A DNA stretch of 20,000 nucleotides from an uncultured virus (IMG/VR IMGVR_UViG_3300042673_000188) (IMGVR_UViG_3300042673_000188), one strand, 5' to 3'; numbered from the stretch's first letter, positions 3,001 through 18,800 are shown. The notes: generated by a model not told the origin, from the sequence alone. Program-made: numbers and translations.

Positions 3001-3784
3001 AGGTCAAACTACATATGATAACACTGTTGGTGTAGCCCACTTCTACATTATGGATAATACAGGAGGTGACCTAAGTCGTTATACAACAGTTACTAAGTTT
3101 AATGAAGCAAAGAATAATTTCAAATCTCGTATAGGTACATATGATGTTAAACCAACAGATTATGTTCCGGTATTTAAATTTAGGCCTAGACAAGATGGAG
3201 AAGATGTTGTTAATATGCAATTTAAATTAGCTTCTGAGCTAACTGCTGATGATAATGCAATTACTAAATTAATCCAATGGAAATTTGGAGATATTGATTT
3301 TAACTCTCAAGTTAACTTATATGATAAAGCTTACTGTTTAACAACTAAATCTGGTGATAAGGCTTATAGCTTTACCTTTAGTAAAAAGGCTAATGGTAAA
3401 GATTTATATAGCCGCTTCTCTGGATCAACTGTTATCTTTATCTTTAAAGATCAGAAGGGTAATACAATTGTTAGAGAGTTTACAGGAAGTATCAACGCTA
3501 TTAAGCAGGAGGGTGAGAATATCATGCAGCAGTTTCAGGTAAAACCGGAAGACCTCACAATTGGTGCATTTGATGCCGGCTCATTTAGTGCAAAACCTGC
3601 ATCTAAAAATGGAGTACTTAAGAGTGACCAGTGGGATGGCTTCAATAAAATACATCCTAATGCAGGAAGTGCTTTGATTATTTCGGTATCTAGTACACAA
3701 AAGGTTATCCAGCTTTCTGATATTAATCCTTCTGAAGAAGAAATAAATAACGTAGCTCAAGAAAAAACAAAATCATGTCAGTAA
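2..3784 (+). CDS. Large polyvalent phage virion cargo protein, 5'-truncated (ART-like modules, degenerate zincin, hydrophobic segment, C-terminal domain)
   Basis: The track gives 65..3784, but the same frame is open from position 2 (NPITVANREEFNKIKEEILAL-M), so the true start is probably upstream of the window. The protein is modular, with poly-Thr and acidic linkers. It ends ...EKTKSCQ-TAA and overlaps the next ATG. Confidence 0.85.
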   Translation, partial: NPITVANREEFNKIKEEILALMPNARVSYNQANNTVNIQLPVLKKKAGPATTTTTKEVITPEGFTNRVFESNLQLGEASADDHISEEGYNYRTLSQTEIDAIIESGGVFSREGKQRGGNKNTKYWTKGNNKNWYGDKDTTETIRVNQANFKENEVVKAKDVEVYNKQTKQFEPLLGRTTTTTTKAEPEKTEEIKGGVKELFDADLELASIGTLQQYSQYLTTIFPDSQEKNIVYHGGNIGIENLGRFYKPGEEGYKKNDFNTKEGIYFAYNKTEAEGYTKKFIFKDKNKKVYSALVNVRPYDNVKQVEKRNKDQKEIDLVSISKEDVQWLLDNNYNALTNKGRIRDQDSPFLVVFEPEQIYILGTKQDKEGFKKFVSGGESIKTEEEEVDEEINSNPEDSDDVKEGESRIDDTSREVEQEMDEAQRRANEGKTPPFSELAKETMQSIKDALGSVRDAMKKSYSRMPQALENNYEKLRRAYKKTGGKLKEKLAKVLDSIQKYLRKLKQILIKASKTVGARRVKRGVQPNAGTPEMSSTKPQVVDNTREILADFVVEQLTQYGFVKFFAEQGMTIDANTILNLEALGTKRGDNVLLENRSTMENTLHRILHMYMDRTGPKSDKDYNAQAQSLINILRPVLQEISKAGGDPNVGVYIEKINYMFDKNPAQELVIQYLTNTPFRSFISRLSPEIQAQFQSLAKEMVLFKDSAGRVTYNKTKSFIKIQDGLLMSDALYEEFINNTLQTPLDVLGDAMASGMDPVTFLLNRIAQPIDVFIAEEASAEDLQEIADEEGKSITDVVTSIKNAVLNYLNTANFARSKTEADKAPRTKKDGIISRIIRKLKKMTIGLMIALSTYTGVAGFDFSGNTEAEIGEEMAERPVWSMVNVIDNTMSILPISDSYKQTMYRGLIKYGIYDIAAVKEEAVNYEMLSDAKAIIESNNKLEYIRQNTYFQNLGRLADSQGAIGPGKQLLDSIMMYRNQWFNDVGFEYITGASNSTRDRVGQTTYDNTVGVAHFYIMDNTGGDLSRYTTVTKFNEAKNNFKSRIGTYDVKPTDYVPVFKFRPRQDGEDVVNMQFKLASELTADDNAITKLIQWKFGDIDFNSQVNLYDKAYCLTTKSGDKAYSFTFSKKANGKDLYSRFSGSTVIFIFKDQKGNTIVREFTGSINAIKQEGENIMQQFQVKPEDLTIGAFDAGSFSAKPASKNGVLKSDQWDGFNKIHPNAGSALIISVSSTQKVIQLSDINPSEEEINNVAQEKTKSCQ
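150..557 (+). repeat. Direct repeat pair encoding Thr-rich linkers (150-173 and 534-557)
   Basis: caactacaactactactaaagaag vs caacaacaactactactaaagcag, 22/24 identical. The core acaactactactaaag is perfect at 155-170 and 539-554. The copies are 384 bp apart and in frame. Confidence 0.85.
263..525 (+). other. Putative toxin-type ART-fold module within ORF1
   Basis: GYNYRTLSQTEIDAIIESGGV...TKYWT resembles the start of polymorphic-toxin ART domains (Y-R strand, then an ExxAIxxxG helix, then an aromatic strand). It is bounded by the Thr-linker repeats. Recognised by eye only. Confidence 0.4.
587..1130 (+). other. ART-PolyVal-like ADP-ribosyltransferase-fold domain within ORF1
   Basis: Motifs are IVYHGG (YHG at 701-709), GIYF (794-805) followed by AxxY, VYSALVNV, LLDNNYNAL and VVFEPEQI (from 1058). 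The flanks GVKELF...IGTLQQYSQYL..IFPDS and ILGTKQDKEGFKKFV resemble those I recall from crAss-like phage giant proteins. Confidence 0.7.
1760..2070 (+). other. Degenerate (probably inactive) zincin metallopeptidase-like domain within ORF1
   Basis: TLHRILHMY (HRILH at 1814-1828) is HExxH with E replaced by R. Downstream QELVIQYLTNTPFRSFI resembles the third-ligand E...N..F helix of MPTase-PolyVal domains. Confidence 0.5.
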
Positions 3785-5322
3785 ACTGCGCCCTTATATA
3801 CGATGATAATGGTAATCCTGTAAACTTTGCAGCACCAAACGGTAAACCATCTGAGCTTTATCTTGATTTGCTACGTGCATATGACAATAATGCACCTGCT
3901 GCAAAGCGTGATTACTTTAAAGTTTATACACGTGCAGCTAATAATTTAACAAATGGGTGGAGTGCTGTAAGACGTGTTTACTCAACAGACGCTAAGTATA
4001 GCAATAGTGAGTTTAGTTATTTTACACAAGCTGCGCCTGAGACTTTTTCTGAAGACTATGACTCAAGTCAATTTGTTGATACACGAGGTAAATATCTTCT
4101 AGCAGCTTCTGAAGAATATCGAGAACTTGCTATAGATTTTGAGCGCGGTACAAAAAATAAAATAGACCTTAGAATACCCACTACTCAGAGAACAATTCCA
4201 ACTAAATTTAATGTAACACCAGAAGAGTTTGTTAGATCTCTTGAGTCTAACAATGGTACTATGGTTGGAAATATAAAAGTGTATAAAGAGGGTACGGAAA
4301 GATCAGCTGTACAAAGAGATATAGATTCATATAATGAATATCGTGGTGGAACTTACATTACCCTGAATAAAACACAGGGAGAACTTAAGGACATTTACAG
4401 AACCAGGATACTTAAAAAAGCTGAACCTTTAGATCCACGTATAGTCAAACAAGGTAATATAGCTGCTATACAGAATGAGTTTTTTAAATATGTTAAAAGT
4501 AAAGGCTACCTGGGTATCTATTCAGAAAGCGCTAGTTCTGATGGGTTTGTAGTAACTTTTGATCGTAGCCAAGTATTAAACCCATCACAGATAAACAAGG
4601 CATTAGATGCTAATGGAGAACCTGTTTTGATACAGAGCAATGGGTCATTGTCTATTGCTGCGCTACCTAGTCCTCGTGAGACTGCTCAGTCTAGAAGTGC
4701 TAATTCAGATGCCCTAGCAGCAAGACTATTAAAGTTAGAACAAGAGAAAAAAGCACAAGATACTGGAGTTCAACCAGTTGTATCTAAAACTAGATCACAA
4801 GTTGCTGTTGAAGGTCTATTTGATAAAGCTAAAACCTTTGATGAAACAAGTGGCACATATAATGGTTTGCTATTAGACTACTTTAATAATTTAAAAGAAT
4901 ACCAGGATAATGGTGTGACACTCCAGTTTTTAACTAACTTATATGAAACAAGAAGTACTCCATTTGATGAGGTAATAGGTAATGAGAACCTTAATGAAGG
5001 TTCTTACTTTGTATCAACTGATGGTGTAACAGGAATGGTTGTAAAAAGTAATGGAGATAACTTTACCGTTATAACCAATGGTGGTATTATGCTTATGAAA
5101 AGAGAAGATATCCTGACTGAGTACTTCCCGTTAAGAGATACTGCTCCTAACTTTGTAAACGTTAGTGATGAGTATACTGAGATTATTGCTGAAAGTGATT
5201 CAGTAATGGATAAGTTCTTTAGCAATCCTGAGGCTGTTGCTAAAGCTGTTAAAGATGTTATGGAACACATGGATAATTTGCGTAAATTTGGATATGATTT
5301 TATTAAAACCCTTAGATGTTAA
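3775..5322 (+). CDS. 515-aa phage virion/polyvalent protein with an APNGKPS...DANGEP module and a split ART-like domain
   Basis: ORF from the track. Its ATG overlaps the last 10 nt of ORF1. Motifs are APNGKPSELY (from 3832), SYFT, FFKYVKSKGYLGI, FVVTFDRSQV and LDANGEP (4603-4623). The only Cys residues are at positions 5 and 515. Confidence 0.85.
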   Translation: MSVNCALIYDDNGNPVNFAAPNGKPSELYLDLLRAYDNNAPAAKRDYFKVYTRAANNLTNGWSAVRRVYSTDAKYSNSEFSYFTQAAPETFSEDYDSSQFVDTRGKYLLAASEEYRELAIDFERGTKNKIDLRIPTTQRTIPTKFNVTPEEFVRSLESNNGTMVGNIKVYKEGTERSAVQRDIDSYNEYRGGTYITLNKTQGELKDIYRTRILKKAEPLDPRIVKQGNIAAIQNEFFKYVKSKGYLGIYSESASSDGFVVTFDRSQVLNPSQINKALDANGEPVLIQSNGSLSIAALPSPRETAQSRSANSDALAARLLKLEQEKKAQDTGVQPVVSKTRSQVAVEGLFDKAKTFDETSGTYNGLLLDYFNNLKEYQDNGVTLQFLTNLYETRSTPFDEVIGNENLNEGSYFVSTDGVTGMVVKSNGDNFTVITNGGIMLMKREDILTEYFPLRDTAPNFVNVSDEYTEIIAESDSVMDKFFSNPEAVAKAVKDVMEHMDNLRKFGYDFIKTLRC

Positions 5323-5325
5323 ACA

Positions 5326-8300
5326 ATGAGTTGTCCGATACAAAAACCTGAAGATTTTTTTAAAAAGGTACAAGCTGATCTCCTTATAGTTAAGGAGGCT
5401 GGTCAACCTTTTAATTTGCGTAATTACATTGGGCAAGTCTATGATGAGGTAAGTAATGAGATTAAGGAAGATCCAAGTCTTGAGGGAAAGGCAGCTGACA
5501 TCGTAAAGAACCTACCAAAAACAGTAGCAATGGCTGCTGGATCAAGTGTTCCTCTATTTGGTTACTTAGCCGCTAATGGATTGGATTTCATTGAGTTAGC
5601 TAAGCTGACTGAAACCTTTGGTTCAATTACTCCACAAGCAGGTGAGACAATGGGTGAGGCTGTTAGTCGTGTATTATCTGATGTAGTTTTACAGTCTAAA
5701 CCAAAGCCGGATGTTGCAGCTATTAATGCTGCAGTTGAGCAGGTTGTAACTTTTCAGGAAGTAGGTCTTACTAATGACTATGTAGCTTTAATCAAAGCAG
5801 CCGTTACTTATGAGGCTAAGCCGTTTACAGTACTTAGCACTATGATGAATAGTGAAATGACTTATACTGACCCTACTACAAATAAACCTGCTGAAAAAGA
5901 AGATATTAATAAAAGATTTTATACTGGTTTTATCAGCCACATTGCATCTTCAATACCTTATGCCAACACTGTAGATGGTAAAGTCTATTTGCCTGGTACA
6001 TCAATACCTATTTATTTAACTACTAAATGGTTAGGTGCACTACCTGCAGATTCAATTTATGAAAGATTTGGTTCACCGGAGTATCAAGAAAACTTTGATA
6101 AGGTTCAAGTGATTACCAATTCTTTAGGGGAGCCTCTTTTCTTTGATGCTAAGTATAATGTAACATCTGAACAAAAAGGTAAAGCAATTTACTATAGATT
6201 CAGAAAGCGACAGACTAAATATAAAGGAGAGCTTAGACAGACATATCAGTCCATAGAAGAAGCTACAAAGAGCCATCTTAAAAGATATATCTATAATAAA
6301 GAGTTACAAGGACAAACGGTTACTGATGAGGAAATATCAGCAGAAGAAATATTGTTCAAGGATAGATATGCTTCTGAAACAGCTCTTGCTGAAAAGATAA
6401 ATGATTATGTCAACCAAAATCATAAAGAACATTTTATTGTAAATGAAATTACTGGGGTATCTGAAGGTTTTATAGATACCAAGATTCAGAAGGTGACACC
6501 AATCCGTGACATTAATTTAGATGGTCAGCCTTTTATTGTAAGAACTGTGGAGGTTCGTCAGGTAAATAGAATTGCTAATGCTGAATTAGTATTAAGAAAC
6601 AATAGAACTGTTGATCTATTTAACTATGGCGTACCTGCAAAGTATGTTGATTTAATTGCCAGAACTTTAGTAGAAGATACATACTACCAGAATGATCCAG
6701 AGTCTGAGACTATTAAAACACTTGATAAGCAGAAACTAATCAAGAACTTTATTTACACAATGCCTAATGAGTTTACTGTAACTAAGGTAGAAGATGATCA
6801 ATACAATGTTACTCTTGGTACTACCGGAAGACAAACTCTTACTAAAGAACAAACAATCGCGGCTATTAAGAATTACCTTACGACACCTCTAAGAAATAAT
6901 AAGAAAGTTATTCTTAATATAGATAAGAAGAAACTTGTAGATCCTACTCAATTTTTTGATTATACTTTACAAGATGATGGCAGTGGTCGCTATGCTATTG
7001 TACCAACCAACTTAGATTATAGTGAGTGGATTAAAGATAACTTCAGTGTACAGGCTGGTTTGGATGCTGAAGGAAAAATCAGAGGTAAGAACCCATATAT
7101 TACTTTTTCTATCAAAGCTGATCAAAATATTAAAATTGGAGAACAACCTGCAGTAGAAACTAGTAATATTGACTTTGGTGCTATTCCTGACTTCTTTAGT
7201 CCAGCTGATGACAGCATTGAAGATGAGGATGACTTGTTCAACCAAATCAAAAGAAAAGGTCTTGAGAAAGCATTTGCACAAAAGGTGCTTAACAAAAATG
7301 AGTTTGCATCAGAAGAAGAGTTTAAAGAGCAAGTCGAACTAGTAGAAGAGTGGTACAATCAGACAGGTTTGAATAAGCACTTCAAGATAAATGTATTGTT
7401 CAATGTTGTTAACTCTAAAGCAGTTGCAACCTGGACAAGAAATGCTATTAATCTTTATGCCGGTTCTGATAAGATTGATATTTTCCACGAGGCTTATCAC
7501 GGATTTACTCAAAAGTTCTTGACTCGTAATCAAAGAAATAGTTTATATAAAGAGCTTGCTGTTAATAAAGCAACCGAGAAGTTTACTACATATAAAGGCC
7601 AGACTAAAACATTTGGAGAAGCTACAGAAAGAGAGTTAGATGAATACTTGGCAGAGGAGTTTCGTGCTTATATGATCTCTAATGGTAAAGTGGAGATTGA
7701 GCGTAGAGCTGCACGTAGCATTTTTAAAAAGATATTTGATTTTATTCAGAAGCTATTTAGAAGAGGTGCAACCTACAAGGATGTACTTACTTATGATACA
7801 TCATTACCGTTGATTAATGAGATCTTCCAAAAGCTTGCTCTTGGTGATATCTCTAAATACACTGCTGATAATGCCAATGTCTCATCTGAGATACTTGAAA
7901 AGAGTATTATTTCTGCGACGGGTGATGCTGTTTTAAATGATTCAGAGACCGATATGGTCATGCTATCAGCTAATTCTGTTATATCAAGTCTTATTGATAA
8001 GCTTAATGCTGACTCTAACACAAGCGCTTATACACAAAAATTACTTATAGACTCTAAGAAAGAGACTTACAAGTTTATTAAAAATGCATTTACAAAAAGA
8101 CTTAATGCTATTGCTAATGAGTACAAAGCAATAAAAGATCTTAATCTTGATGCATCTAATCCTAGATATGATGAGTATCAAATGAAGCTTGCTACTCTTG
8201 AACATCAGATTTATATTCTTAAAACAACAGTTGACAATTTCGGGGACGTAGATAATATGTCAGAGACCTATGGATTTGTTAAACACTATGAAGATAATGG

Positions 8301-11300
8301 ATCATTCTTAGCTTATCAGAAAATGCTAGATCAAGAAGATGATCTAGATGAGACTGTGTTTGTTGCTGAAAAGAACAAGACATATGACCTTACAGGTAAT
8401 GAGAATACCATCTATGAGCAAGCACATGCTAGAACTATTTACTTAGTAGAGAGTTTACTACAACCTAAGTATAACAGCAAGACTCAGAAGTACGAGGATC
8501 CAAAAGTCAATACTAAGACTGGAGAAACTGAGTATGAGTATGAGAAAGACTATTTAGGATTTCCCAAGCTTGTAGACTTTGACTATGTATGGAACAAACT
8601 ATCTCAAGTTTTAGATAACTTAGATCCAAGTGAGTCTGTATTTAGATCACAGTTAGCTAGTCAAGCGGGAGACTTTCCGTTTTTATTCCAGCTTTTGAAA
8701 AAGTTAGGTGACCCTGAGACTAGAAACCCTTGGGTATCTAAGATGTGGGCTAGCTTTGTAACTGACTTCAATTACATAAGAACTCCTATAGAAGCTCTTA
8801 CTATTGAGTTAATTGGGACTAAAGAAGAGGAAACTAAAAAAGAAACATTTACATCTGGTGGTGCTACCTTTGGTGTAGCATCAAGTAGCTCTAAAGCTGC
8901 AGCTAGAGACTGGGATGATTACTTCCAACAGGTTAAAAATCATCCTTATATTAAAGAAACTATTGGAGCACCTAACCAACTTGATGTTCAAGCTGTATTA
9001 GATGAGTTCCAAAACAATTATCTTGGACGTGAGATTGAATTTTTCCATGCTTTAGGGATTAATATAATTAACAAACCTCAAGTAAGAGAAAGACTTCAAA
9101 GTAATGGTCGCTTTAATACCGGCCGTGTTAAAGACTTTTTAAACAATCTAGAATTCTTAATTGAGAATAATGTAAAATTTGTCTCAAGTATAGATGCTGT
9201 TGTTAATCCTAAACAAAAGGATGGTAAAAGCCTTGCTACTATATATAGTAATATCCAAGGACTGCATCTTAAATACACAGAGGACAGATCTGACTTCATG
9301 GCTTTACGCCCTGATGGAAATGCTCAATCTGAGTTTATGAGAAACAGTACACTTACTGTTAAAATAAGAGGTCTGAATAGCTTTGATACCTATGGTGAGA
9401 CTATAGCTCAACCACATCTTAGTGAGTTTGACTATAGAAGAAACCCTTGGGTTAAGAGATTAGTTCTTATGAATGACCTCTTTAACTTCAATAGCATTGA
9501 GGGTGAGAGAAAGCGTGCATCGGCATTTGTAGATACAAAAGCTAGACTTGATATTACTCTTTTAGGTGGAACTGCTGTTATTAAAGATGGTATTGGTGAG
9601 GGTCTTGCTAACATTGATCTTGATGATTACAGTAAACTTCAACAAGACTTTATCACTGTAATTTTAAAAGGTGTTAGTGAAGGTACTCGTTCTGCGGGTA
9701 AACCTACATCTGTTATTCTAAAATCAAATACCAGAAAGTTTTATGTTTCGCCGGCTGAGTTTATTAGTAATTCAGCTGTTAAAGGAAGAGGATTAGATAA
9801 AGTTGTTAATATTTTTGTAGGATATGCTGCTGCGGAATTAGATAGAATCAACTGGTTAAAAGAAAACCCTAACTCACCTGAAGCATTAGCAAACGATGGT
9901 AAAAATACCTTCTATGATAGAGGTACAGTATTTACTTTATTTGATGATATTTTTACTGATGCCACAAAGGATAAACTATACGGTTTATCTGGAGAAAGCC
10001 TAGATGCTCTTATGGCTGATATAGCCTTTAGAGAATCTGAAGAAGGTGGTGACATTGCAGACAATGTAATAAAAGATATCAGAAGCTATTTGATCAGACA
10101 ATACTCCAATACGCAGAATGCTCTTATTGGTGACATAGCAAAGCTATACCCTAATGAGAATCCTTTTATTGATCCTAATGTTATTAATACAGTTAGGAAT
10201 GAGGCTTTGTCTAATGGTATAAGATCAGAAGTTAGTGACCAAGATGCTTACCAAGCCGCATTGCTGGCTTATGTGACAAACTCACTCATACATAATATAG
10301 AAACTACTGTTATTATACATGGTGATGCTGCGCAATTTAACAATGCGTCAGATGAATTCCATAAACGTAATGCCCCAGCACAATCATCTGGTAAATTCCC
10401 AATACTTAGTAAGGAGCGTCTTGACTATTTAAATGATTTCTTAAGTAAGCCATACGTTGATTCTCCATGGTTTGCTGACTATACTTATAATGGCGTAAAG
10501 TATGTAGGTGTTGAGCCGACATTTATTAAACCATTCAGTCAACAAGCAACTTTTGCTGTTTTTAAAGAAGCTAAGATTAAGTCAATATACTATGATATGA
10601 TATTGAATAGTATTTTGGGTGATGACATGGCAGCACTTGAAGCACTAGATATGTATAAGGATGCTAGTGAGGAGGAACAAGCAGTTTTGAGGGAGCAGCT
10701 TACTGCAGAAATTACTGAAATGGTTGATGAAGCCTATGGTAATATGAAAGAGGGAGATGGTCAAGGTTGGGCAGCATTTGACTTCTATAGAGGTCTATGT
10801 GATCAACTTGATCAATGGAGCCCTGAGCAAGAAGCACTTTATAAAAAGATACTTAAGAAGGAGTACATTACAGAATCTAGATCAGATCTTTTACAGATAT
10901 TCCCTATCCTTAAGATGCAATATGATGGTCCTTTATCAGGAACCGGATTACCTTTAAATGCACTTCTTAAGTTTGAGATCTTCCCATTGATCCCTAATGT
11001 TATTGAAGGTACAGAATTAAATGTACTTCATAACAAAATGGTAGAGCAGAATATGGATATTGCTACATATGAATCAGGTAGCAAGCTTATGCATTTCACT
11101 AATAATGGTAAAACAGATCTTTTCTATTCCGATATAGAAAATAGAGAGTTGGCTCTTGTTGATGAGAACTATAGATTCACACCTAACACTTTATTCTTAC
11201 AGTATTTTAAGAAGCAGGCTGAAATCTCAGACAAGTACAAAGGCAAGACAAACCTTGCTACACAGATGAGAAAAGCCATCATTAATAATATGGATGAGTA

Positions 11301-14300
11301 TGGTGTACCTGTTGACTTTAAGTTTGATGGTAAACCTGTTGATAGAATTAAAGCTTGGAGTGAGTTAACGGAAAATCAAAAAGAGAAAGAGTCACCAAAG
11401 TATGTGGCAGTTAATCGCTACAAAAAAGCATTGTTGTCTCTTGTTGCAGCTAATACTGAAAAGCTATATAAAAGATTTGGTGTAATAGACGAAGAAGGCA
11501 ATAAAACCAATAATGCTAAAGGCATGGTTGAGTTTTTGAGAAATCAACTAGCTGTTCTCGGTTTACCAAGCCATATAATAAATGACATATCTTATGATCC
11601 AAAGACTGGTAAAATCAATAGTGATTTAAGTTTGAGCTTTGGTGCAGATGATATAGAAAAGCTTTTAATGAGCATGATTAATAAATCACTCATTAAACCT
11701 AAAATTAAAGGTGATCAGTTGGTACAAGTAAGTAACTCTGGATTTACCAGAAACTATGCAGAAAAGAAACTTAGATATGCTACTGAAGAAGAGAGACTCA
11801 AGTATCTAGGTACTGGTGACTTACCGTTTTATAACATAACAGAAGACGGTCACTTTACAAAAGCCGGAGCTAAAATGGGTATAAATGGTGACTTCAAGAA
11901 GTTACTTATGATGGAAGAGACTACCCAGAGAGTAGCTGAAAGTGAAGCACCTATTACAAGATTGCAAGCTCTTAATCAATTAATTAGAGAAGAGTCATGG
12001 TTAGCCAAGTATGAGGATCTTATTACTATAGTTACTGTACGTATCCCTACAGCTAAAGAAAACTTTATTGAGTACTTACAGGTATATGAATTCCTTGATG
12101 AAAATGCGGGACCTATTATAGTTCTTCCTATGGAAGTTGTAGGTAAATCAGGTACTGACTTTGATACAGATAAGCAGGTTAGTTACTTCCCTAACATTTC
12201 ATTCCAAAGAGAGTTTGATAAAAACTATATTGAGGAAATGAAAACTCTTTCGCCTGACCTCAAACTGGATATCAAGTACCTTAATAAAATACTTGATTTG
12301 GTTGAGGAAGATGGTATTGCCTCACTTAAACCAAAGCAGAAACAAGTATACGCTGTAGCTAAAGCCGCACTTACTGAAAAGGTGTATATGGCTGATAAAG
12401 GAATGAGAGGAGTAGAGAATGAATTCTTAAACTCTGTTAAAGGTTTACTTGACCTGATGTCTTATTCTGACTTTGTCAGACCTGTTACAACTCAAACGGC
12501 ATTACCAATTGCTAAGAAATATGAGCAATACGTTATGACCTATAATCATAAGTTGCGTGCAGATGGTACTATTGGTAAGACTACTAGCCCTACTCGTATC
12601 TTTGAAATCTTACATAACATTAAAAAGTTAAGTGAGAATAGTGTAGGTTTTCAATCTTTGGGTATTGGTGCTGTAAGTATTACAGGGGATGCTATGATGA
12701 ACCAAGCTAACCTCTACCTAAATAGAGAGTACAAGACTGAAGGTAAGTCATCACAAAAGCGCATGTTTACTATTGAGTTTGACCACAACTACTTGATACT
12801 AGATGGTGTTCCTGTAGTATCATTAGCAGCATTACGTGGTAAAAACAACTACAAGAAGATTGTAAACCAACTTGAAGAATTGCTTAATGGTTGGGTAGAC
12901 GTTGAGAAAGATGCATGGATCTTTTATTTAAATGGTGTTAAGACTGTGGCGCCGGTTATGATTGCAATGCTTCAAGCAGGTGTTGCTCTTGAAGATGTAG
13001 CAGCCTTTGTTAATCAGCCTATTATACGTGAGTATGTAAGACGCATGTCTATACTTAAGAGTCCGTTTGCATTCCTTAGCAACATTGCACCTGAGAATGC
13101 TAACTTCTTCCGTGTAAAGTCTCGTAAAGACATGTTGATTTCTGAGAATGCAAAAAATACACTTGACTATCCTATAGATCTACTTAAAGCTTTAGAATTA
13201 GAACCATTAAGTATTGATCCTAAAACCGGAACAAAAGAGAGTTCTGGTAAGTATAGCTTAGGAAACTTGACCTATACTTTTGGTCGTGAGCTTATAGATA
13301 ACTACAATACAGAGAGTCTATTTAACAAGGATACCCTGAATAAAAAAATCTTAAATAAGAGCACTGAATATGGACCAGAGGACTATGCTGTATTATTCCA
13401 TTTTTTTGAGATGGAGGACGTTGGTAAAGCACTAGCAGAACTTAAAAGAAATACAAACTTTGACGTTAAGAAAGAGTCTAGACTATTTGCTACTATGCAG
13501 AAAGATTTGTTGGCTAAAGGTATGCTTGAAGATGCAAGATTTAATCCTGAAGGTCTTGACCACATGATTAATAACTCTGTTATATCATCATTCCGTATTG
13601 CAGATGTTGCTAAAGACTTAATAGGTGGTTTATTTGGAGTAAGAGAAGATAAAGATTTCAATGACATACTTATAGCTGAGTGGTCCTCAATCAAAAGCAT
13701 TGATAAGAACACTTATGATGACATGGAAGTTACCCTCAATGAACTTAAAAATCAATATATTCAGTTCTTATTGCAGAACTATTTAAATGATGTAGACATT
13801 GATACTATAAAAGAATTCAAAGGTCTTGCGGTAAATAATAAATTACCTGTAGCTGAGGCAGCTGGTCTTAAATCATTTGGTGCCTATGTATTAAATGGTA
13901 TTCTTTATGTATCAAAGGAGTCTATAAAGAATAACTATGCAACTCTTGTAGCTAACCATCAAGACATAAGTAATGAGCAGGTACGTACCGCTAAAATAGA
14001 TACTGATCTTTTCTCTACTGAGAAGGAGTATCAAAACTTTATTCTGAACAGAGAGATATTAAGATCAATCACAGATGTTGATCAATTAATTACTACTCCT
14101 GAATTTAAAACTAGACTTATTCAGAAGAAAAAAGAGTTGCGTGCTCAGAACTCACTTACATTAAATGCTCCACTTGAGGTTAAGCAATTAATCACAGACG
14201 GTAGTGCTGGTATAGGTAGGCTTACAATGGACCTTGCGGATAGATTTGGTTATCAACTTGATGGTTATACAGGAACCGGTGAAAATCTAAATGATCTTGC

Positions 14301-15864
14301 TGGATTTAACATTAAGGGAACCGATCCTAAAAATGTATTACGTTTAAACATTGAGCTTGCTGATGCATGTGTTATATATGGTGTGGCTGATGCTACTAAG
14401 ACTAAGAGAGCAATTGAGATAATTAACTCAAGAAAAATACCTTACTTGCTTAACCCTAGTGCTCAGCAACTAAGAACTTTCTTATCACAAGGAGCTCATA
14501 AAAAAGTTAATATAATAAGTGCAGCAGCTGCTACAGCTAATGAACTAGAGCAACTAAACAAAGTTTTAGGTCCAGCACTTATTCCTGCAGAAAAAGAAGG
14601 CGCCGCAGCTATGCGTGAGGTCTATGAAGAAATTTTAAGAGATAGGACTTTAGATCAAGTATTTAATATTTATAAGTTATTTAGAGGTATTCCTAATGGG
14701 GAGGCTAGCTATGCTATGCAATTTGAAGCACTTAAGTTAAAGTACCCTACCCTTCAGGAAATGTACCCATTGGTAGATCTGCTAAGAGCATCTGCAATCG
14801 GTAAAGGTTTATTTTCAGGAGCTAATGTTCTTATCTTAAAGACCCGTAGACCTTCAAAGCCACTTAAAGAAAAGCTTTATCAGAACTTCAAAGAGTTATC
14901 TAATCCTACAAGTATAAGATTAAACATTCCTTACCAAGAGAAAGAAGCTATTGCTAAATTCTTTAGCCGTCTACCGACAGTTGTTTTACTTGCAACTGGT
15001 ATTTCTGGTAAAGGTGAGAATGCATTATGGCAATTTGTAGACAAAGGAAACTTAAATCCTGTGTTAGAAGAAGCTGTTCAGGCTGCTAGTGGTAAGACTA
15101 AGAAAAATATTATACGAGAATATATAACTAGGTTCCAACAGGCTAACAGTAAATCTAGCTTTAAGTCTCGCCGTCAATTTAGATCTTACATGGTAGATGG
15201 TACCTTCAACAAAATGGGTGCACAGACTAACTCTAAAGCAACGGGTATAAAAGAAAGTGCCGTTACCTTCTCTGCTGGAAACAAGTATAGTATCAATAAC
15301 TTAGTTAGTGCCGATATTAAGAAAGTATTTGCTAGCCAGGAAGAAGGAAACATATTCCTATACAACGGTACTACAAACCCAGCGTGGAGTTTGTCTACCT
15401 TTAATAATGTTGTGGGTATCCTGAATGATGTAGGTACTGATAACTTGATACCAATGAGAACTTATAATATGGTATACAATAATGATGCGTCTTTCACAGA
15501 TGCAAGCTATGATACCAATGTTATGATGATCAATGAGGACATAGCCCGTATTAAAAATAAGATCCAGGAGTTAGTTGACAAAGGTGTTAGAAGAGAATCT
15601 ATTAGAATCTTTACTCCTAAAACTGGACTAGGTCAAGGTATGATTGGAGCAAGTGATTTCACAGGTGGAGCCATGAATAAAATTAAGGCTAAGGGCACTA
15701 AAACTTTCTTATATTTGTCTGAAGCTCTAGCTCAACTTGGAGTTGTAAATACAAACTCTGACACTGTACTAAAGACTGATAAACCAGATGTTACACCAGC
15801 TCTTAACATAACAGATGATATGGTGCTTGATATTATAGAACAAAGAACGTGCTTTAAATCTTAA
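5326..15864 (+). CDS. Giant virion-packaged DNA-dependent RNA polymerase (crAss-like / phi14:2 gp66-type two-barrel RNAP) polyprotein with N-terminal zincin
   Basis: 3512-aa ORF. It has the metal-binding motif SGTDFDTDK (DFDTD at 12157-12171, about residue 2278), preceded by VRIPT (RIPT at 12040-12051), with EGDGQGW (DGQGW at 10756-10770) upstream, in the order seen in crAss-like RNAPs. It also has a zincin HEAYH (7486-7500) followed by DEYLAEEF (from 7639). Confidence 0.88.
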   Translation: MSCPIQKPEDFFKKVQADLLIVKEAGQPFNLRNYIGQVYDEVSNEIKEDPSLEGKAADIVKNLPKTVAMAAGSSVPLFGYLAANGLDFIELAKLTETFGSITPQAGETMGEAVSRVLSDVVLQSKPKPDVAAINAAVEQVVTFQEVGLTNDYVALIKAAVTYEAKPFTVLSTMMNSEMTYTDPTTNKPAEKEDINKRFYTGFISHIASSIPYANTVDGKVYLPGTSIPIYLTTKWLGALPADSIYERFGSPEYQENFDKVQVITNSLGEPLFFDAKYNVTSEQKGKAIYYRFRKRQTKYKGELRQTYQSIEEATKSHLKRYIYNKELQGQTVTDEEISAEEILFKDRYASETALAEKINDYVNQNHKEHFIVNEITGVSEGFIDTKIQKVTPIRDINLDGQPFIVRTVEVRQVNRIANAELVLRNNRTVDLFNYGVPAKYVDLIARTLVEDTYYQNDPESETIKTLDKQKLIKNFIYTMPNEFTVTKVEDDQYNVTLGTTGRQTLTKEQTIAAIKNYLTTPLRNNKKVILNIDKKKLVDPTQFFDYTLQDDGSGRYAIVPTNLDYSEWIKDNFSVQAGLDAEGKIRGKNPYITFSIKADQNIKIGEQPAVETSNIDFGAIPDFFSPADDSIEDEDDLFNQIKRKGLEKAFAQKVLNKNEFASEEEFKEQVELVEEWYNQTGLNKHFKINVLFNVVNSKAVATWTRNAINLYAGSDKIDIFHEAYHGFTQKFLTRNQRNSLYKELAVNKATEKFTTYKGQTKTFGEATERELDEYLAEEFRAYMISNGKVEIERRAARSIFKKIFDFIQKLFRRGATYKDVLTYDTSLPLINEIFQKLALGDISKYTADNANVSSEILEKSIISATGDAVLNDSETDMVMLSANSVISSLIDKLNADSNTSAYTQKLLIDSKKETYKFIKNAFTKRLNAIANEYKAIKDLNLDASNPRYDEYQMKLATLEHQIYILKTTVDNFGDVDNMSETYGFVKHYEDNGSFLAYQKMLDQEDDLDETVFVAEKNKTYDLTGNENTIYEQAHARTIYLVESLLQPKYNSKTQKYEDPKVNTKTGETEYEYEKDYLGFPKLVDFDYVWNKLSQVLDNLDPSESVFRSQLASQAGDFPFLFQLLKKLGDPETRNPWVSKMWASFVTDFNYIRTPIEALTIELIGTKEEETKKETFTSGGATFGVASSSSKAAARDWDDYFQQVKNHPYIKETIGAPNQLDVQAVLDEFQNNYLGREIEFFHALGINIINKPQVRERLQSNGRFNTGRVKDFLNNLEFLIENNVKFVSSIDAVVNPKQKDGKSLATIYSNIQGLHLKYTEDRSDFMALRPDGNAQSEFMRNSTLTVKIRGLNSFDTYGETIAQPHLSEFDYRRNPWVKRLVLMNDLFNFNSIEGERKRASAFVDTKARLDITLLGGTAVIKDGIGEGLANIDLDDYSKLQQDFITVILKGVSEGTRSAGKPTSVILKSNTRKFYVSPAEFISNSAVKGRGLDKVVNIFVGYAAAELDRINWLKENPNSPEALANDGKNTFYDRGTVFTLFDDIFTDATKDKLYGLSGESLDALMADIAFRESEEGGDIADNVIKDIRSYLIRQYSNTQNALIGDIAKLYPNENPFIDPNVINTVRNEALSNGIRSEVSDQDAYQAALLAYVTNSLIHNIETTVIIHGDAAQFNNASDEFHKRNAPAQSSGKFPILSKERLDYLNDFLSKPYVDSPWFADYTYNGVKYVGVEPTFIKPFSQQATFAVFKEAKIKSIYYDMILNSILGDDMAALEALDMYKDASEEEQAVLREQLTAEITEMVDEAYGNMKEGDGQGWAAFDFYRGLCDQLDQWSPEQEALYKKILKKEYITESRSDLLQIFPILKMQYDGPLSGTGLPLNALLKFEIFPLIPNVIEGTELNVLHNKMVEQNMDIATYESGSKLMHFTNNGKTDLFYSDIENRELALVDENYRFTPNTLFLQYFKKQAEISDKYKGKTNLATQMRKAIINNMDEYGVPVDFKFDGKPVDRIKAWSELTENQKEKESPKYVAVNRYKKALLSLVAANTEKLYKRFGVIDEEGNKTNNAKGMVEFLRNQLAVLGLPSHIINDISYDPKTGKINSDLSLSFGADDIEKLLMSMINKSLIKPKIKGDQLVQVSNSGFTRNYAEKKLRYATEEERLKYLGTGDLPFYNITEDGHFTKAGAKMGINGDFKKLLMMEETTQRVAESEAPITRLQALNQLIREESWLAKYEDLITIVTVRIPTAKENFIEYLQVYEFLDENAGPIIVLPMEVVGKSGTDFDTDKQVSYFPNISFQREFDKNYIEEMKTLSPDLKLDIKYLNKILDLVEEDGIASLKPKQKQVYAVAKAALTEKVYMADKGMRGVENEFLNSVKGLLDLMSYSDFVRPVTTQTALPIAKKYEQYVMTYNHKLRADGTIGKTTSPTRIFEILHNIKKLSENSVGFQSLGIGAVSITGDAMMNQANLYLNREYKTEGKSSQKRMFTIEFDHNYLILDGVPVVSLAALRGKNNYKKIVNQLEELLNGWVDVEKDAWIFYLNGVKTVAPVMIAMLQAGVALEDVAAFVNQPIIREYVRRMSILKSPFAFLSNIAPENANFFRVKSRKDMLISENAKNTLDYPIDLLKALELEPLSIDPKTGTKESSGKYSLGNLTYTFGRELIDNYNTESLFNKDTLNKKILNKSTEYGPEDYAVLFHFFEMEDVGKALAELKRNTNFDVKKESRLFATMQKDLLAKGMLEDARFNPEGLDHMINNSVISSFRIADVAKDLIGGLFGVREDKDFNDILIAEWSSIKSIDKNTYDDMEVTLNELKNQYIQFLLQNYLNDVDIDTIKEFKGLAVNNKLPVAEAAGLKSFGAYVLNGILYVSKESIKNNYATLVANHQDISNEQVRTAKIDTDLFSTEKEYQNFILNREILRSITDVDQLITTPEFKTRLIQKKKELRAQNSLTLNAPLEVKQLITDGSAGIGRLTMDLADRFGYQLDGYTGTGENLNDLAGFNIKGTDPKNVLRLNIELADACVIYGVADATKTKRAIEIINSRKIPYLLNPSAQQLRTFLSQGAHKKVNIISAAAATANELEQLNKVLGPALIPAEKEGAAAMREVYEEILRDRTLDQVFNIYKLFRGIPNGEASYAMQFEALKLKYPTLQEMYPLVDLLRASAIGKGLFSGANVLILKTRRPSKPLKEKLYQNFKELSNPTSIRLNIPYQEKEAIAKFFSRLPTVVLLATGISGKGENALWQFVDKGNLNPVLEEAVQAASGKTKKNIIREYITRFQQANSKSSFKSRRQFRSYMVDGTFNKMGAQTNSKATGIKESAVTFSAGNKYSINNLVSADIKKVFASQEEGNIFLYNGTTNPAWSLSTFNNVVGILNDVGTDNLIPMRTYNMVYNNDASFTDASYDTNVMMINEDIARIKNKIQELVDKGVRRESIRIFTPKTGLGQGMIGASDFTGGAMNKIKAKGTKTFLYLSEALAQLGVVNTNSDTVLKTDKPDVTPALNITDDMVLDIIEQRTCFKS
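7330..7770 (+). other. Zincin-like metallopeptidase domain in the RNAP polyprotein
   Basis: ATWTRNAINLY strands, then IFHEAYHGF, the third-ligand helix DEYLAEEFRAY, and an amphipathic helix SIFKKIFDFIQKLF. Confidence 0.8.
10200..12700 (+). other. RNAP catalytic core (double-psi beta-barrel pair), approximate bounds
   Basis: Contains KRN, DGQG, RIPT and DFDTD motifs in the order expected for two-barrel polymerases. Boundaries are estimates. Confidence 0.75.
14179..14530 (+). other. Degenerate SLOG-superfamily (cpYpsA / 'MoCo carrier'-like) domain in the RNAP C-terminal region
   Basis: VKQLITDGSAGIGRLTMDLADRFGYQLDGY...RLNIELADACVIYG...KIPYLLNP..QLRTFL...KKVNII tracks the family pattern KIISGGQTGVDRAALD.A...G...GG...NV..SDGT.IF...KP.L.NP...L..WL...TLNVAG. 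Key residues are substituted. Confidence 0.6.
15300..15750 (+). other. Possible degenerate macrodomain-like fold at the RNAP C-terminus
   Basis: NIFLYNG...LIPMRT...FTDASYDTNVMMINEDIARI...IFTPKTGLGQGM (GLGQG at 15625-15639)...KTFLYLSEALAQLG resembles phage macro-like domains with a P..GLGTG loop. Recognised by eye. Confidence 0.45.
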
Positions 15865-15869
15865 TAAAT

Positions 15870-18800
15870 ATGTATTGCGGAGTAGATACTAGCAGCCCGG
15901 AATGGGCAAAATTAAAGTCTGAAACTGAAGGTGTAGGTTTATTTGAAGCAGTAAAAGATGCTGTCTTTAGATCAGGAGGTGTAGTACGCCCAGTAGAAGA
16001 TGTTGTTAGATCTATTATGAAAGAGGATCTTTCTAAAGTTCTTCAATACCAAAGCCGCTTTCCTGAGATTGCGTCTGAGTTTATTACTCCAGTTAGGACG
16101 GTGTCAATGTTCCAAGGTTTTAATGAGCTTGACAACCGCAGTGTAAATTACTTTACAATGGATGCGGCTGAGGCGCAGGATTATGGAAGTAATGTTAGAA
16201 GAGTTACAATTGACTTAGCAGGTACGCTTGCCGGTGATACTAAAATATACCGTCAGATGACAACTGAGTTCCAAAACCAAACTGGCATTCAGTATGATCT
16301 TTTTGATGATGGCGTTGAGGGATTACAGAACCAAGCTAAGTTCTATGACTTCCTTAGGGATAAAGGATACAAGGGTATAGACTATACTATGTTTTCTGAT
16401 AGTCCGTATGTAGTTTTGTTTAGTACAGACAATATATTAAGTGAGGGAGTAACCCGTGATGCAAGTGGTGTTATGGTTAATGAGCTAGATCTATACATAC
16501 AGTATGAGAACTTCAAAGCTAATGAGTCAAGTCTACAGAATACAGCAGCAGAGTTTATAACTAATAAACCTAACCAACAAGTAAGAGCTCTTATCGGTAC
16601 CCTTATAGATAACCTTGGCAATACTGCTGAGGCTAACTTTATTACCGTGGAAGAGGCTAAACAGATTCACAGAGACCTTAATCAACCTTACAATAACCAG
16701 CCCGCATTCTTTTGGAATGGTGCTGCATACTTTGTTAGTGACAATGTTACACCACAAATGGCATTTCACGAGTTCTCTCACCCGTTTGTAAAAGCATTGC
16801 GCGTAAAGAACCCTAAGTTATATAACACATTAATTGACGACTTGCTTTCTTCACAAGAAGGGCAACTTATATACAATGAAGTTCTAGCAAGTAAGCCTAA
16901 TGAGTCTGAGGATTCTCCTAAGGTTTATGATGAGGTTATAGTAAAAGCTATGACTGAAGCATTTCAGAATAGAACAGAGGGTAACACAGAGACGCCGCAG
17001 TTTAAGACAGCAATTGGTAATATACTATACCGCATTAGACAGTTCTTACGTAAGCTGTTTAGCAAAGGTGATACTAAAGTAAGATTGGATAAGCTTGGTT
17101 TAGATACCACTATTAACGAGTTAGCAGAGATGCTCTTGAATAAAAAGATTGCTGACATTACAGCAGAAGATATTACAGAGCAAGATGTTATTGACTACAT
17201 GGAAAACCGCAATGATGTTGTGGAAGACTTACTTAAATTAAATAGCAATACCATTGCCAAACAAGTAACCTTTACATATAATTCGGCGGCGGATTACTTA
17301 CAAAAATTAAAGGACAACGGTTATACAAAAGAGATTGCTAACCTACTTAAAGATAGATTCAGTAATAATGAGCTTAGAGAAATTCAGAATAACCTATACG
17401 CTCAGTCGGATAAAATCTATCGAGAAGCAGAAACAGTAGAAGCAGAAATGCGTCAGGCTGCAGTAAGAGCTGAGGTATTTGCTACTAACTTATACAAGCT
17501 TCAGAATATTGTAACAAGGATCAATGAGGATGCTAGAAACAAAGCAGCAGATGCTGTTACACCTGAGAAGTCTGTAGAGGCAATGTATGCTCTTACATTC
17601 TACAAAGGTTTTGCAAACTACTGGACTGGTTATATACGAGTAATTAAAGAGGAGTTAGACAACCCGCAGATTGCCGGGGCGTATATTAAAACTAATTCAC
17701 CACTATACTCACTTATATCAAACATCCAAGATGAAGTTGATCAGCTGAATAAGACAATTAACCGTGTAGATAGAGCAGCTATTGGACCTGTGTTGTATGA
17801 GCAACTTATGCCTATGGCTGCCGAGATTGATGAGAAGTATACTAATATCATTGATATTCTCCAAAAGAGAATTGATGCTTCTGACGGTAAGAAAAAAGAT
17901 GGTTACATCAGACAGCAAGAAGATTGGAAAGCAAAGTATGAAGCTATCCGTTTAACACCAGAGAAGTTTGAAATGATCTTATCAGGTAAACTAGGAGACG
18001 GTAGCCAAGCAAATAGTTTCTTAGAGAGTTACCTTCACAACCAAGACCCGGTTGTGTCAAGTATTGCAATGTTTGTTAAAAATAGATTGACAGATGTAGA
18101 CTTGCGTACTGCAAAGTTCCAAGATAAATTCAATAAGATAATAGGACCTAAGCTCCGTGAAAATGGACTAGACAAATCATTAAATCCTGCGGCGTATGGA
18201 GAAGCTGTTACATTTTTAGATGAGTCTTATGAGAATGATAAAAACGGTAACTTAGTTAAGTTTCCTGTATGGACTATACTTTCTCCACATAAAAATTATA
18301 GATACTTCAGAGCACTTCAAGATAAAAATATTAAAGAGCTTGCTGACATTGCTGAAAAAAGCGGTACACAGGCAGACAAGGATAACCTTAGACAAGCTAA
18401 AGCTGATAAATTTAACTATGAGCTTAAGTATTTCTACATGGATTTTGATGTTCGAGTATATGCTCCAGACATCAAAATAGATAGTACACCTGAAGGACGT
18501 GAAGCAAGAGAGGAGTATAGTAAGAAGTGGCAAGAGATTAACTCTTTAGATAAGTCATTCTACAATGATCCTAATGCATATACGGAAGTTCTCACTAGAA
18601 AGAAACAAATATTAAGAGAGATATCAGAGTTAACATCAGATAAATATATCAATGGTGATCCTAAGGTAGATACAGATACTAACAAACCTCTTACTAAAGC
18701 TAAGTTGCTTAGAGAGTGGATGAATGAGAAGAGGCAGTATAAAATTAAAGTAAAGAATGAGGGAGCCTTCCAAACTGCTATTACTGACTATATGCAGAGA

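Follow-up and report, generated by a model that had tools for sequence, protein, structure and literature searches.

How several very large proteins pass through a narrow podovirus-like tail, in what order and in what numbers, is a question that arises above all in crAss-like phages, the viruses found in greatest abundance in the human gut (PMC10172136). It also bears on a 20,000-nucleotide stretch of DNA from an uncultured virus (IMG/VR IMGVR_UViG_3300042673_000188), hereafter the window, in which four genes lie end to end, among them that of a giant virion RNA polymerase (RNAP), and in which most of the few cysteines of the encoded proteins stand where one protein ends and the next begins.

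Among described systems, cyanophage A4 (Anabaena phage A-4L) provides a mechanistic precedent: in its pre-ejectosome, cryo-electron microscopy revealed a disulfide bond between gp27 Cys1715 and gp26 Cys5, with the C-terminal helix of gp27 docked in gp26 (PMC12002296; PDB 9K2V, 9K3A). In the A-4L record the two genes are adjacent, and each of these residues is the only cysteine of its protein (1717 and 1114 amino acids (aa), respectively). As far as the available text of the structural study goes, Arg and Lys residues of gp26 and gp27 touch the first DNA circle, and the bond is handled as a stabilising detail rather than as a principle of chain building (PMC12002296).

For crAss001, gp47, gp49 and gp50 were detected in virions by mass spectrometry, about six copies of each cargo protein per virion were suggested, and disulfides are present in the tail and in gp57 (PMC10172136). 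A preprint on phi14:2 notes fused polyprotein forms and suggests that they are cleaved; its accessible text mentions neither cysteine nor disulfide (10.1101/2020.03.07.982082). In the N4-like phages (Schitoviridae; DEV gp71-gp73, N4 gp50) the giant virion RNAP and its companions are nearly devoid of cysteine, a suppression that an earlier proposal, as related in PMC11445570, ascribes to passage through the periplasm. The T7 internal virion proteins gp14, gp15 and gp16 leave the capsid ahead of the DNA (PMC10172136, PMC12002296). A full-text literature search found no paper describing terminal cysteines or a cargo tether in Crassvirales. To our knowledge, no covalent link is known between gp14, gp15 and gp16 of T7. 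Relative to what is in print, namely a single link in one cyanophage, a multi-link tether in series would be new.

The window resembles A4 in having adjacent genes for large, cysteine-poor ejection proteins, with a C-terminal cysteine upstream and an N-terminal cysteine downstream, and this signature occurs at three junctions. It differs in that three links in series would stand where A4 has one, in including a polymerase, which the A4 chain lacks, and in family, A4 belonging to Saffermanviridae. Both phi14:2 (g067-g066-g065, where g066 is PDB 6VR4) and crAss001 (gp47-gp50-gp49) share with the window a homologous polymerase and the same rule of terminal cysteines; they have three members where the window has four, through its extra 515-aa adaptor, and shorter polymerases (2180-2412 versus 3512 aa, with 24-30% identity in the catalytic region). 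As in Schitoviridae, cysteine is far rarer in the block than in the rest of the phage, but suppression there is essentially complete (0.00075% in gp71 homologues) with no terminal cysteine described in the accessible text (PMC11445570), whereas the window keeps a cysteine at every junction.

Junction cysteines in a four-gene block

The window corresponds to positions 12886-32885, minus strand, of a 119,556-base-pair virus record with direct terminal repeats. Its four same-strand open reading frames (ORFs; Table 1), the first open at its 5' end and the last at its 3' end, were completed in the full genome and encode proteins of 3176 (ORF1), 515 (ORF2), 3512 (polymerase) and 2093 aa (ORF4). ORF1 begins with MAENLQSE, 5746 nucleotides (nt) upstream of the window, and ORF4 ends with KGIENKRN. 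The whole block holds nine cysteines in 9,296 residues, and six of the nine flank the three internal junctions. A preliminary description of this DNA had reported a cysteine close to each of the six visible termini and about nine cysteines in about 6,660 codons. The six codons lie exactly as reported (Table 1), the termini read KTKSCQ (end of ORF1), MSVNC and TLRC (ORF2), MSCP and RTCFKS (polymerase) and MYCG (start of ORF4), and nine cysteines are counted in the 6,664 visible residues. ORF2 has no further cysteine, and the same can now be said of ORF4 over all its 2093 aa. Completion of the genes sharpens the observation, as the two outer ends of the block, the N-terminus of ORF1 and the basic C-terminus of ORF4, carry no cysteine and terminal cysteines are confined to the internal junctions.

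Cysteine accounts for 0.097% of the block and for 1.23% (332 of 27,037 residues) of the phage's 100 remaining ORFs with 80 aa or more, three of which have a cysteine within the first 8 residues and eleven within the last 10. When nine cysteines were placed at random, all six junction windows were never filled in 2,000,000 trials and the maximum was three, with an analytic estimate of about 5e-14. Because this test was framed after the pattern had been seen, the survey of relatives presented below is the independent check and the real control.

We infer from this arrangement that the four genes would form an injected cargo block, in which a small adaptor and the virion RNAP stand between two large proteins, the first of them multi-domain; by analogy, the four proteins are most likely packaged and injected in this phage. 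The cargo would have been purged of cysteine, like other phage ejection proteins, except for one on a short C-terminal tail and one among the first three to five residues of the next protein. In the particle, the C-terminal module of protein n would dock on its N-terminal counterpart in protein n+1, with an intermolecular disulfide forming between the two junction cysteines, in either the assembled or the released particle. The cargo would thus be one linear chain, ORF1-ORF2-RNAP-ORF4, equivalent to the single polyprotein of some relatives. Such a chain would give 1:1 stoichiometry, and its unfolded proteins would follow one another through the tail until the reducing host cytoplasm released them. 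On comparative grounds we regard the pairing of the C-terminal cysteine of protein n with the N-terminal cysteine of protein n+1 as very likely real, and a head-to-tail disulfide tether of successive cargo proteins in crAss-like virions as probable. If true, a conserved tether would explain why the same cargo is encoded as one, two, three, four or five polypeptides in relatives, and would account for equal stoichiometry and for release coupled to entry into a reducing cytoplasm. It would be directly testable in phi14:2 and crAss001, both of which are cultured and obey the rule, and the terminal-cysteine signature would allow annotators to find cargo chains, and the order of their members, in uncultured phages.

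The junctions of the window are themselves conserved, as six metagenome loci of 73-97% identity keep each junction cysteine that they cover. Megablast and tblastn of ORF2 against INPHARED returned nothing, and a scan of viral contigs with ORF2 alone found no relative; the few homologues of ORF2, at 92%, 74%, 27% and 26% identity, all keep both terminal cysteines and have no other, the last two reading MIQCS...TCK and MLQCS...KCK. The ORF1 tail, which reads ...EINNVAQEKTKSCQ up to its stop codon, is kept in six close relatives and in the distant locus L102 (...EKTKACK). There the protein that precedes an ORF2 homologue of 28% identity ends in ...EINNVINEKTKACK, and MSCPINNGQEFF comes directly after the homologue.

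The same locus bears on the idea that the cysteines are a by-product of nucleotide signals at gene junctions, such as overlapping start and stop codons or translational coupling. The preliminary description had raised this as a caveat for ORF1, whose TGT overlaps the ATG of ORF2 (A-TGT). In L102 the upstream cysteine is kept while its codon does not overlap the ATG of the ORF2 homologue, which removes the caveat. Across relatives the paired cysteine codons are variably spaced, with intergenic gaps from -11 to +154 nt, and C-terminal cysteines are also kept on opposite-strand genes away from the polymerase start, leaving an origin in nucleotide signals extremely unlikely. An acidic helix said to be shared by the C-termini of ORF1 and the polymerase gained no support from a search: the last 250 aa of ORF1 have no match at E <= 0.01 in the 80 loci of the survey.

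Terminal cysteines across relatives, fusions and strand changes

A search of IMG/VR with an alignment of the polymerase catalytic region yielded 345 related stretches, of which the best 80 were examined together with 10-kilobase flanks; removing duplicates that share an identical 200-aa polymerase end reduced these to 67 loci. The preliminary description had proposed tabulating cysteines in orthologous cargo genes, including split and fused ones, and in this tabulation the terminal cysteines prove to be conserved. A cysteine occurs within the first 8 residues in 52 of the 56 polymerases with a visible 5' end (the misses being L047, L049, L051 and L064) and within the last 10 residues in all 62 with a visible 3' end. 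The 51 complete polymerases (2362-4906 aa) have two cysteines in 41 cases, three in eight, and one and four in a single case each, and internal cysteines of the polymerases in the 67-locus set number 12 in 176,067 residues. Junctions were counted for adjacent same-strand ORFs with a gap of at most 150 nt, a cysteine being scored as C-terminal in the last 30 and as N-terminal in the first 8 residues: 119 pairs have cysteine on both sides, nine on neither and seven are mixed.

Three of the mixed pairs come from small ORFs in L060 and L065, three from ordinary ORFs outside the block, and one, in L065, is a real exception; with a 10-residue C-terminal window the mixed pairs number 12, eight of them from one clade. 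The small ORFs lie between two chain members (L060:16700-17347, 215 aa; L065:18249-18734, 161 aa), and the chain then resumes with an N-terminal cysteine (MATC.., MAC..). Their N-terminal motifs, read by eye (MKTGIYKIEN, MLNSGVYGIF), we take to be of GIY type, and both ORFs look like homing-endonuclease insertions.

The placement of the cysteines follows position in the chain. In relatives, the protein before the polymerase has a single cysteine in its visible part, near the C-end, and the last chain protein has an N-terminal but no C-terminal cysteine. Small intercalated proteins carry both (165 aa in L056, 170-171 aa in L081 and L086, 328 aa in L084, 460 aa in L065, 739 aa in L030, 782 aa in L050, 907 aa in L049, 1146 aa in L060); judged by its sequence, the 515-aa ORF2 of the window is an intercalated adaptor of this kind. 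These regularities can be set against a reading in which terminal cysteines tie the cargo to another virion component, such as the portal, the tail barrel or the inner surface of the capsid, or to other copies of the same protein. Disulfides between crAss001 tail parts (PMC10172136) speak for such bonds, as does the L065 polymerase, which has an N-terminal cysteine without a visible upstream partner. The reading appears improbable, however, because it leaves unexplained why an N-terminal cysteine is always absent from the first member and a C-terminal one from the last, why N- and C-terminal cysteines are equal in number in every genome examined, and why fusion removes both cysteines at once.

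Fusions concern the polymerases of L047, L049 and L051, which lack the N-terminal cysteine: the ORF visible before L049 and L051 is itself entirely without cysteine, and L047 shows no ORF ahead of it. Separate upstream proteins of L034, L015, L024 and L011 are homologous to the long N-terminal extension of L049 (E 3e-10 to 7e-6), and the upstream protein of L030 to that of L051 (E 1e-16); L047 matches L051. Profiles of the connector modules detected no recognisable connector remnants at these three fused junctions, so the argument from fusion draws on homology of the flanking bodies.

Further fusions occur in two families, with A denoting the protein before and D the protein after the polymerase. 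In cr1_1 (Suoliviridae) a 4551-aa A+RNAP fusion has no N-terminal cysteine and a cysteine at position -3, and is followed by a 2007-aa protein starting MSIIC. In cr11_1 and ctbg_1 (Intestiviridae) a zincin-bearing protein ending ...YCE or ...VCT is followed by an RNAP+D fusion (4388 and 4407 aa) that starts MSC and has no C-terminal cysteine. Each of these single-junction lineages allows one pairing, the A C-terminus with the RNAP N-terminus in Intestiviridae and the RNAP C-terminus with the D N-terminus in Suoliviridae, which argues for a chain arrangement and not for circularisation. Intramolecular closure, an alternative raised in the preliminary description, would have the two-cysteine proteins (ORF2 and the polymerase) circularise, while the single cysteines of the first and last members pair together or stay free. 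That proteins with both terminal cysteines exist is in keeping with it, but the only pairs available in cr11_1, ctbg_1 and cr1_1 would then be non-partners, conservation as a set is seen both for the C-terminal module before the polymerase and for the N-terminal module of the polymerase, and the A4 bond is intermolecular (PMC12002296); we hold such closure to be very improbable.

The fused forms also bear on a transient role, in which the cysteines would serve end recognition or processing during packaging, perhaps by a zincin-like protease within the polymerase polyprotein. An HExxH motif is found in the same context in 56 of the 59 complete polymerase ORFs (80 loci, redundant set), and cleavage of fused polyproteins has been suggested for phi14:2 (10.1101/2020.03.07.982082). 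Nothing, however, connects the zincin with recognition of cysteines, and fused forms that lack cysteine where separate forms have the junction indicate that the cysteines are not cleavage marks, so that we give this role very little credence.

A change of strand leaves the pattern intact. Steigviridae have three proteins, the first encoded on the opposite strand, and keep the terminal-cysteine rule: in cr85_1 the first protein ends ...AIKCIAF, the polymerase reads MSC...NTIC and the last protein begins MARDC, and tikkala, cr128_1 and crAss001 are alike. The opposite-strand first protein keeps its C-terminal cysteine in cr85_1, tikkala, cr128_1, IAS virus and crAss001, as its only cysteine in four of the five and with one more in IAS virus; the latter agrees with the rule, in a record that has ambiguous bases and an apparently split polymerase. 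Since the cysteine is kept when the first gene lies on the opposite strand, the effect is on the protein and not on the gene junction. The cleanest case is phi14:2: g067 (1797 aa) ends in its single cysteine, the two cysteines of g066 (2180 aa) are Cys3 and Cys2179, and g065 (1421 aa) contains Cys3 alone; according to the record, g065-g067 were annotated from tandem mass spectrometry. In crAss001, gp47 has its only cysteine at position -2, gp50 has Cys5, Cys2404 and one internal cysteine, and gp49 has Cys5. The rule thus holds in phi14:2, in crAss001 and in members of three Crassvirales families, and the pairing inferred in the preliminary description draws support from chain position, fusions without the pair, opposite-strand genes and single-junction lineages alike.

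One comparison that seemed to be a simple fusion/split pair, L084 and L087, was rejected as such, since alignment shows a module replacement. The polymerases agree at 96-97% identity until about 30 aa short of the L084 end, differ thereafter and share only the last 23 aa; L084 has a separate 328-aa cysteine-tipped protein, L087 a different extension of about 175 aa fused to the polymerase, and both end ..KCRED. Cysteine is here still found only at real protein ends.

Connector modules and the nature of the proposed link

The cysteines belong to terminal modules rather than standing as isolated residues. With filters off, the first ~60 aa of an ORF2-family profile align to residues 2-62 of downstream proteins in eight loci (E 1e-12 to 7e-7), and the last ~200 aa of ORF2 match the C-terminal ~200 aa of proteins that precede the polymerase (E for L017, 2e-6; L034, 1.5e-5; L024, 4e-4; L028, 1e-3; others weaker). 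When 16 such C-terminal modules, 11-19% identical to ORF2, were aligned, no column but that of the cysteine was invariant, and for 16 polymerases M1, C3, A164 and G381 were the invariant positions within the first 500 residues. In these alignments the junction cysteines are the most conserved residues of otherwise fast-evolving end modules.

The same head-to-tail docking could bring two cysteines, or a cluster from two or more junctions, to share a metal ion instead of forming a disulfide. The comparative pattern shows joint action of the paired cysteines and is silent on chemistry, many hosts live in anoxic habitats in which oxidation is not assured, and with about six copies per crAss001 virion, as suggested in PMC10172136, several junctions could meet. 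Against a shared metal, no second conserved ligand (His or Cys) stands beside either cysteine, the cysteine being the sole invariant column of the C-terminal module and C3 the sole invariant side chain near the polymerase N-terminus, and the same signature in A4 is a disulfide (PMC12002296), a bond that crAss001 virions also contain (PMC10172136). We consider metal sharing unlikely and the disulfide the better supported form of the link.

Tails and heads appear to be exchanged together. The polymerases of L016 and L031 share 56.5% identity over their whole length and their downstream proteins 52%, yet the polymerase tail has been exchanged along with the next head (...EFMRKCFGE with MLTCPNKSS... 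versus ...FEDSKNCN with MACSIIRNKE...). Tail type and head type go together across 114 distinct two-sided junctions, a ...GC tail going with a C-x-L-[STN] head in 14 of 15 cases and a C-hydrophobic-x-x tail with a CP-x head in 17 of 18. Associations and cassette swaps are consistent with cognate pairing, and both are confounded by genetic linkage and shared descent. By these classes each of the three window junctions has a connector type of its own, and this would set the chain order as ORF1-ORF2-RNAP-ORF4. We rejected a CaaX-like reading of the C-terminal tails (C-F-K-S and similar), as many tails end at the cysteine or one residue later.

At the end of the chain, K or R occurs among the last three residues (..RK, ..RR, ..KR) of 42 of 45 terminal ORFs, three of the 45 not being true chain ends. 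Contact with DNA through the basic C-end of the last member is a speculation. We can tentatively picture the Crassvirales cargo as a megadalton "post-translational polyprotein", a possibility that we put forward with some reserve: cognate, orthogonal, cysteine-tipped connectors would lock about 9,300 residues in four proteins into a fixed order by disulfides, with 1:1 packaging and passage through the tail as a single continuous thread. The last protein's basic C-terminus would lead or follow the DNA end, the reducing host cytoplasm would cut the chain and free the active polymerase, and connector cassettes might be swapped or inserted, as with the 515-aa adaptor, to add effector modules.

Several observations weigh against a disulfide tether of this kind, besides the confounding by linkage and descent just named. 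No experiment or structure in any crAss-like phage shows the bond, and the accessible text of the crAss001 atlas (PMC10172136) does not contain the word cysteine and reports no cargo disulfide, though reduced and non-reduced samples were analysed. Comparison of A4 gp26-gp29 with the ORFs of the 80 loci and the window proteins (phmmer --max) gave no significant similarity, the best E being 9e-4 over one 77-aa stretch, so that the A4 precedent is a mechanistic analogy, with homology not established. Searches of the phage genome for thioredoxin and glutaredoxin gave no match, and oxidation would consequently be spontaneous and uncatalysed or depend on the host or the environment. The interior of the block is not strictly cysteine-free, as the window proteins have three internal cysteines (residue 1112 of ORF1 as visible in the window and residues 1825 and 3015 of the polymerase), one of them conserved in close relatives, and the Intestiviridae fusions hold five to seven.

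Exceptions in the survey weigh in the same direction. The L065 polymerase has its N-terminal cysteine with no cysteine-bearing upstream partner, and in one clade the only visible cysteine of the upstream protein is followed by a basic tail and stands 17-26 residues short of the end. Two broken genes have no cysteine pair at the break: the L064 polymerase (L064:3704-13624) is interrupted by a lone in-frame TAA where the sequence is A-rich, perhaps through an error in sequencing, a case of read-through or a split of recent date, and the L068 downstream gene (L068:13709-20591) is broken into 204 and 1780 aa about 0.9 kilobases apart. Its intact homologue in L083 has 1977 aa and the L068 gap contains no ORF of at least 60 aa; the gap could be an intron or an assembly fault. 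Finally, cr108_1, whose annotation is unusual, is not counted among the genomes that keep the rule.

Identity and internal features of the four proteins

Table 1. Genes, junction cysteines and internal motifs in the window (positions counted from its first nucleotide)
Feature	Coordinates	Strand	Details
ORF1, chain member 1, C-terminal 1260 aa of 3176	2..3784	+	C-terminal Cys codon TGT 3776-3778; internal Cys 3335-3337; no N-terminal Cys
ORF2, chain member 2, 515 aa, small adaptor	3775..5322	+	sole Cys: Cys5 (TGC 3787-3789) and last residue Cys515 (TGT 5317-5319)
Polymerase, chain member 3, 3512 aa	5326..15864	+	Cys3 (TGT 5332-5334); Cys3509 (TGC 15850-15852); internal Cys 10798-10800 and 14368-14370
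ORF4, chain member 4, first 1377 of 2093 aa	15870..20000	+	only Cys is Cys3 (TGC 15876-15878); gene end at window coordinate 22151
DFDTD catalytic metal-binding motif, polymerase aa 2278-2282	12157..12171	+	D, F, D, D invariant in alignment with four Steigviridae polymerases; aligns to DFDID of 6VR4
HEAYH, zincin-like HExxH motif, polymerase aa 721-725	7486..7500	+	conserved context ..YHEAWH.F[ST]Q
ART-PolyVal (Pfam PF18760), ADP-ribosyltransferase-like, in ORF1	695..1081	+	sub-threshold: E 2.1e-5, 25.7 bits versus curated cut-off 31.2

The preliminary description had labelled the giant protein an RNAP, and correctly so. A profile of the catalytic region, built from the window and four Steigviridae, matches PDB 6VR4 (6vr4_A) with E 1.4e-28 over residues 1224-1525, with the DFDxD motif in register; the whole polymerase as a single sequence had no significant match in the PDB. 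A 600-aa stretch of it matches 24 INPHARED records by tblastn at 24-29% identity, and all 20 for which an organism name is shown are named as crAss-like or crAss-type; RNA polymerase is the annotation of many of the genes hit. At both termini, stretches of 150-250 aa are homologous to polymerase ends in relatives, and the gene lies among giant genes downstream of tail and structural genes, flanked by homologous cargo proteins (119.5-kilobase gene map and the 80 loci). From profile match, motif and gene context, we identify the 3512-aa protein as a crAss-like virion RNAP of the phi14:2 gp66 type. Virion packaging, injection and transcription of early genes by such an enzyme are known for phi14:2 and crAss001 only (PMC10172136; 10.1101/2020.03.07.982082). 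The zincin-like domain, which in the window lies within the polymerase, was placed in the separate protein gp65 of phi14:2 (10.1101/2020.03.07.982082). Residues 1553-1599 (window 9982-10122) have a weak match to Pfam T7_gp14 (E 0.0026, 18.1 bits, cut-off 27).

Residues 200-1470 of full-length ORF1 are homologous to proteins upstream of the polymerase in relatives. A segment around ART-PolyVal (full-protein aa 2106-2310) recurs in the polymerase of L025 and L009 and in downstream proteins of L035, L060 and L084, which suggests that effector modules may move between chain members. ORF4 has homologues, at 25-30% identity and over nearly all of its length, in the proteins that follow the polymerase in relatives, its N-terminus matching their heads weakly. 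No PHROGs family was found for any of the four proteins, Pfam gave only the sub-threshold ART-PolyVal and T7_gp14 matches for the block, and PDB sequence searches with ORF4 and with the ORF2-family profile had no significant match. AlphaFold2 modelled ORF2 with a mean predicted local distance difference test (pLDDT) score of 43 and the first 500 aa of the polymerase with a mean of 63, with residues 1-4, including Cys3, below 50 and a helical bundle at residues 8-99 at about 70-88, both models being too weak to build on; Foldseek against the PDB gave no match at E <= 0.001.

A search for Erv1/ALR had no match in any control genome and so carries no information on this phage. Genes for thioredoxin or thiol-disulfide isomerase are annotated in some gut crAss-like phages (L005, cr128_1, 12825-13070; L007, cr108_1, 31393-31662). 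Directly upstream of ORF1 (window coordinates -19642 to -5747) lie four genes for large proteins of 1418, 791, 1144 and 1172 aa, which have 0, 0, 0 and 2 cysteines, none of them terminal, and look like cysteine-purged cargo or tail-channel proteins outside the chain, as gp45 and gp46 are in crAss001.

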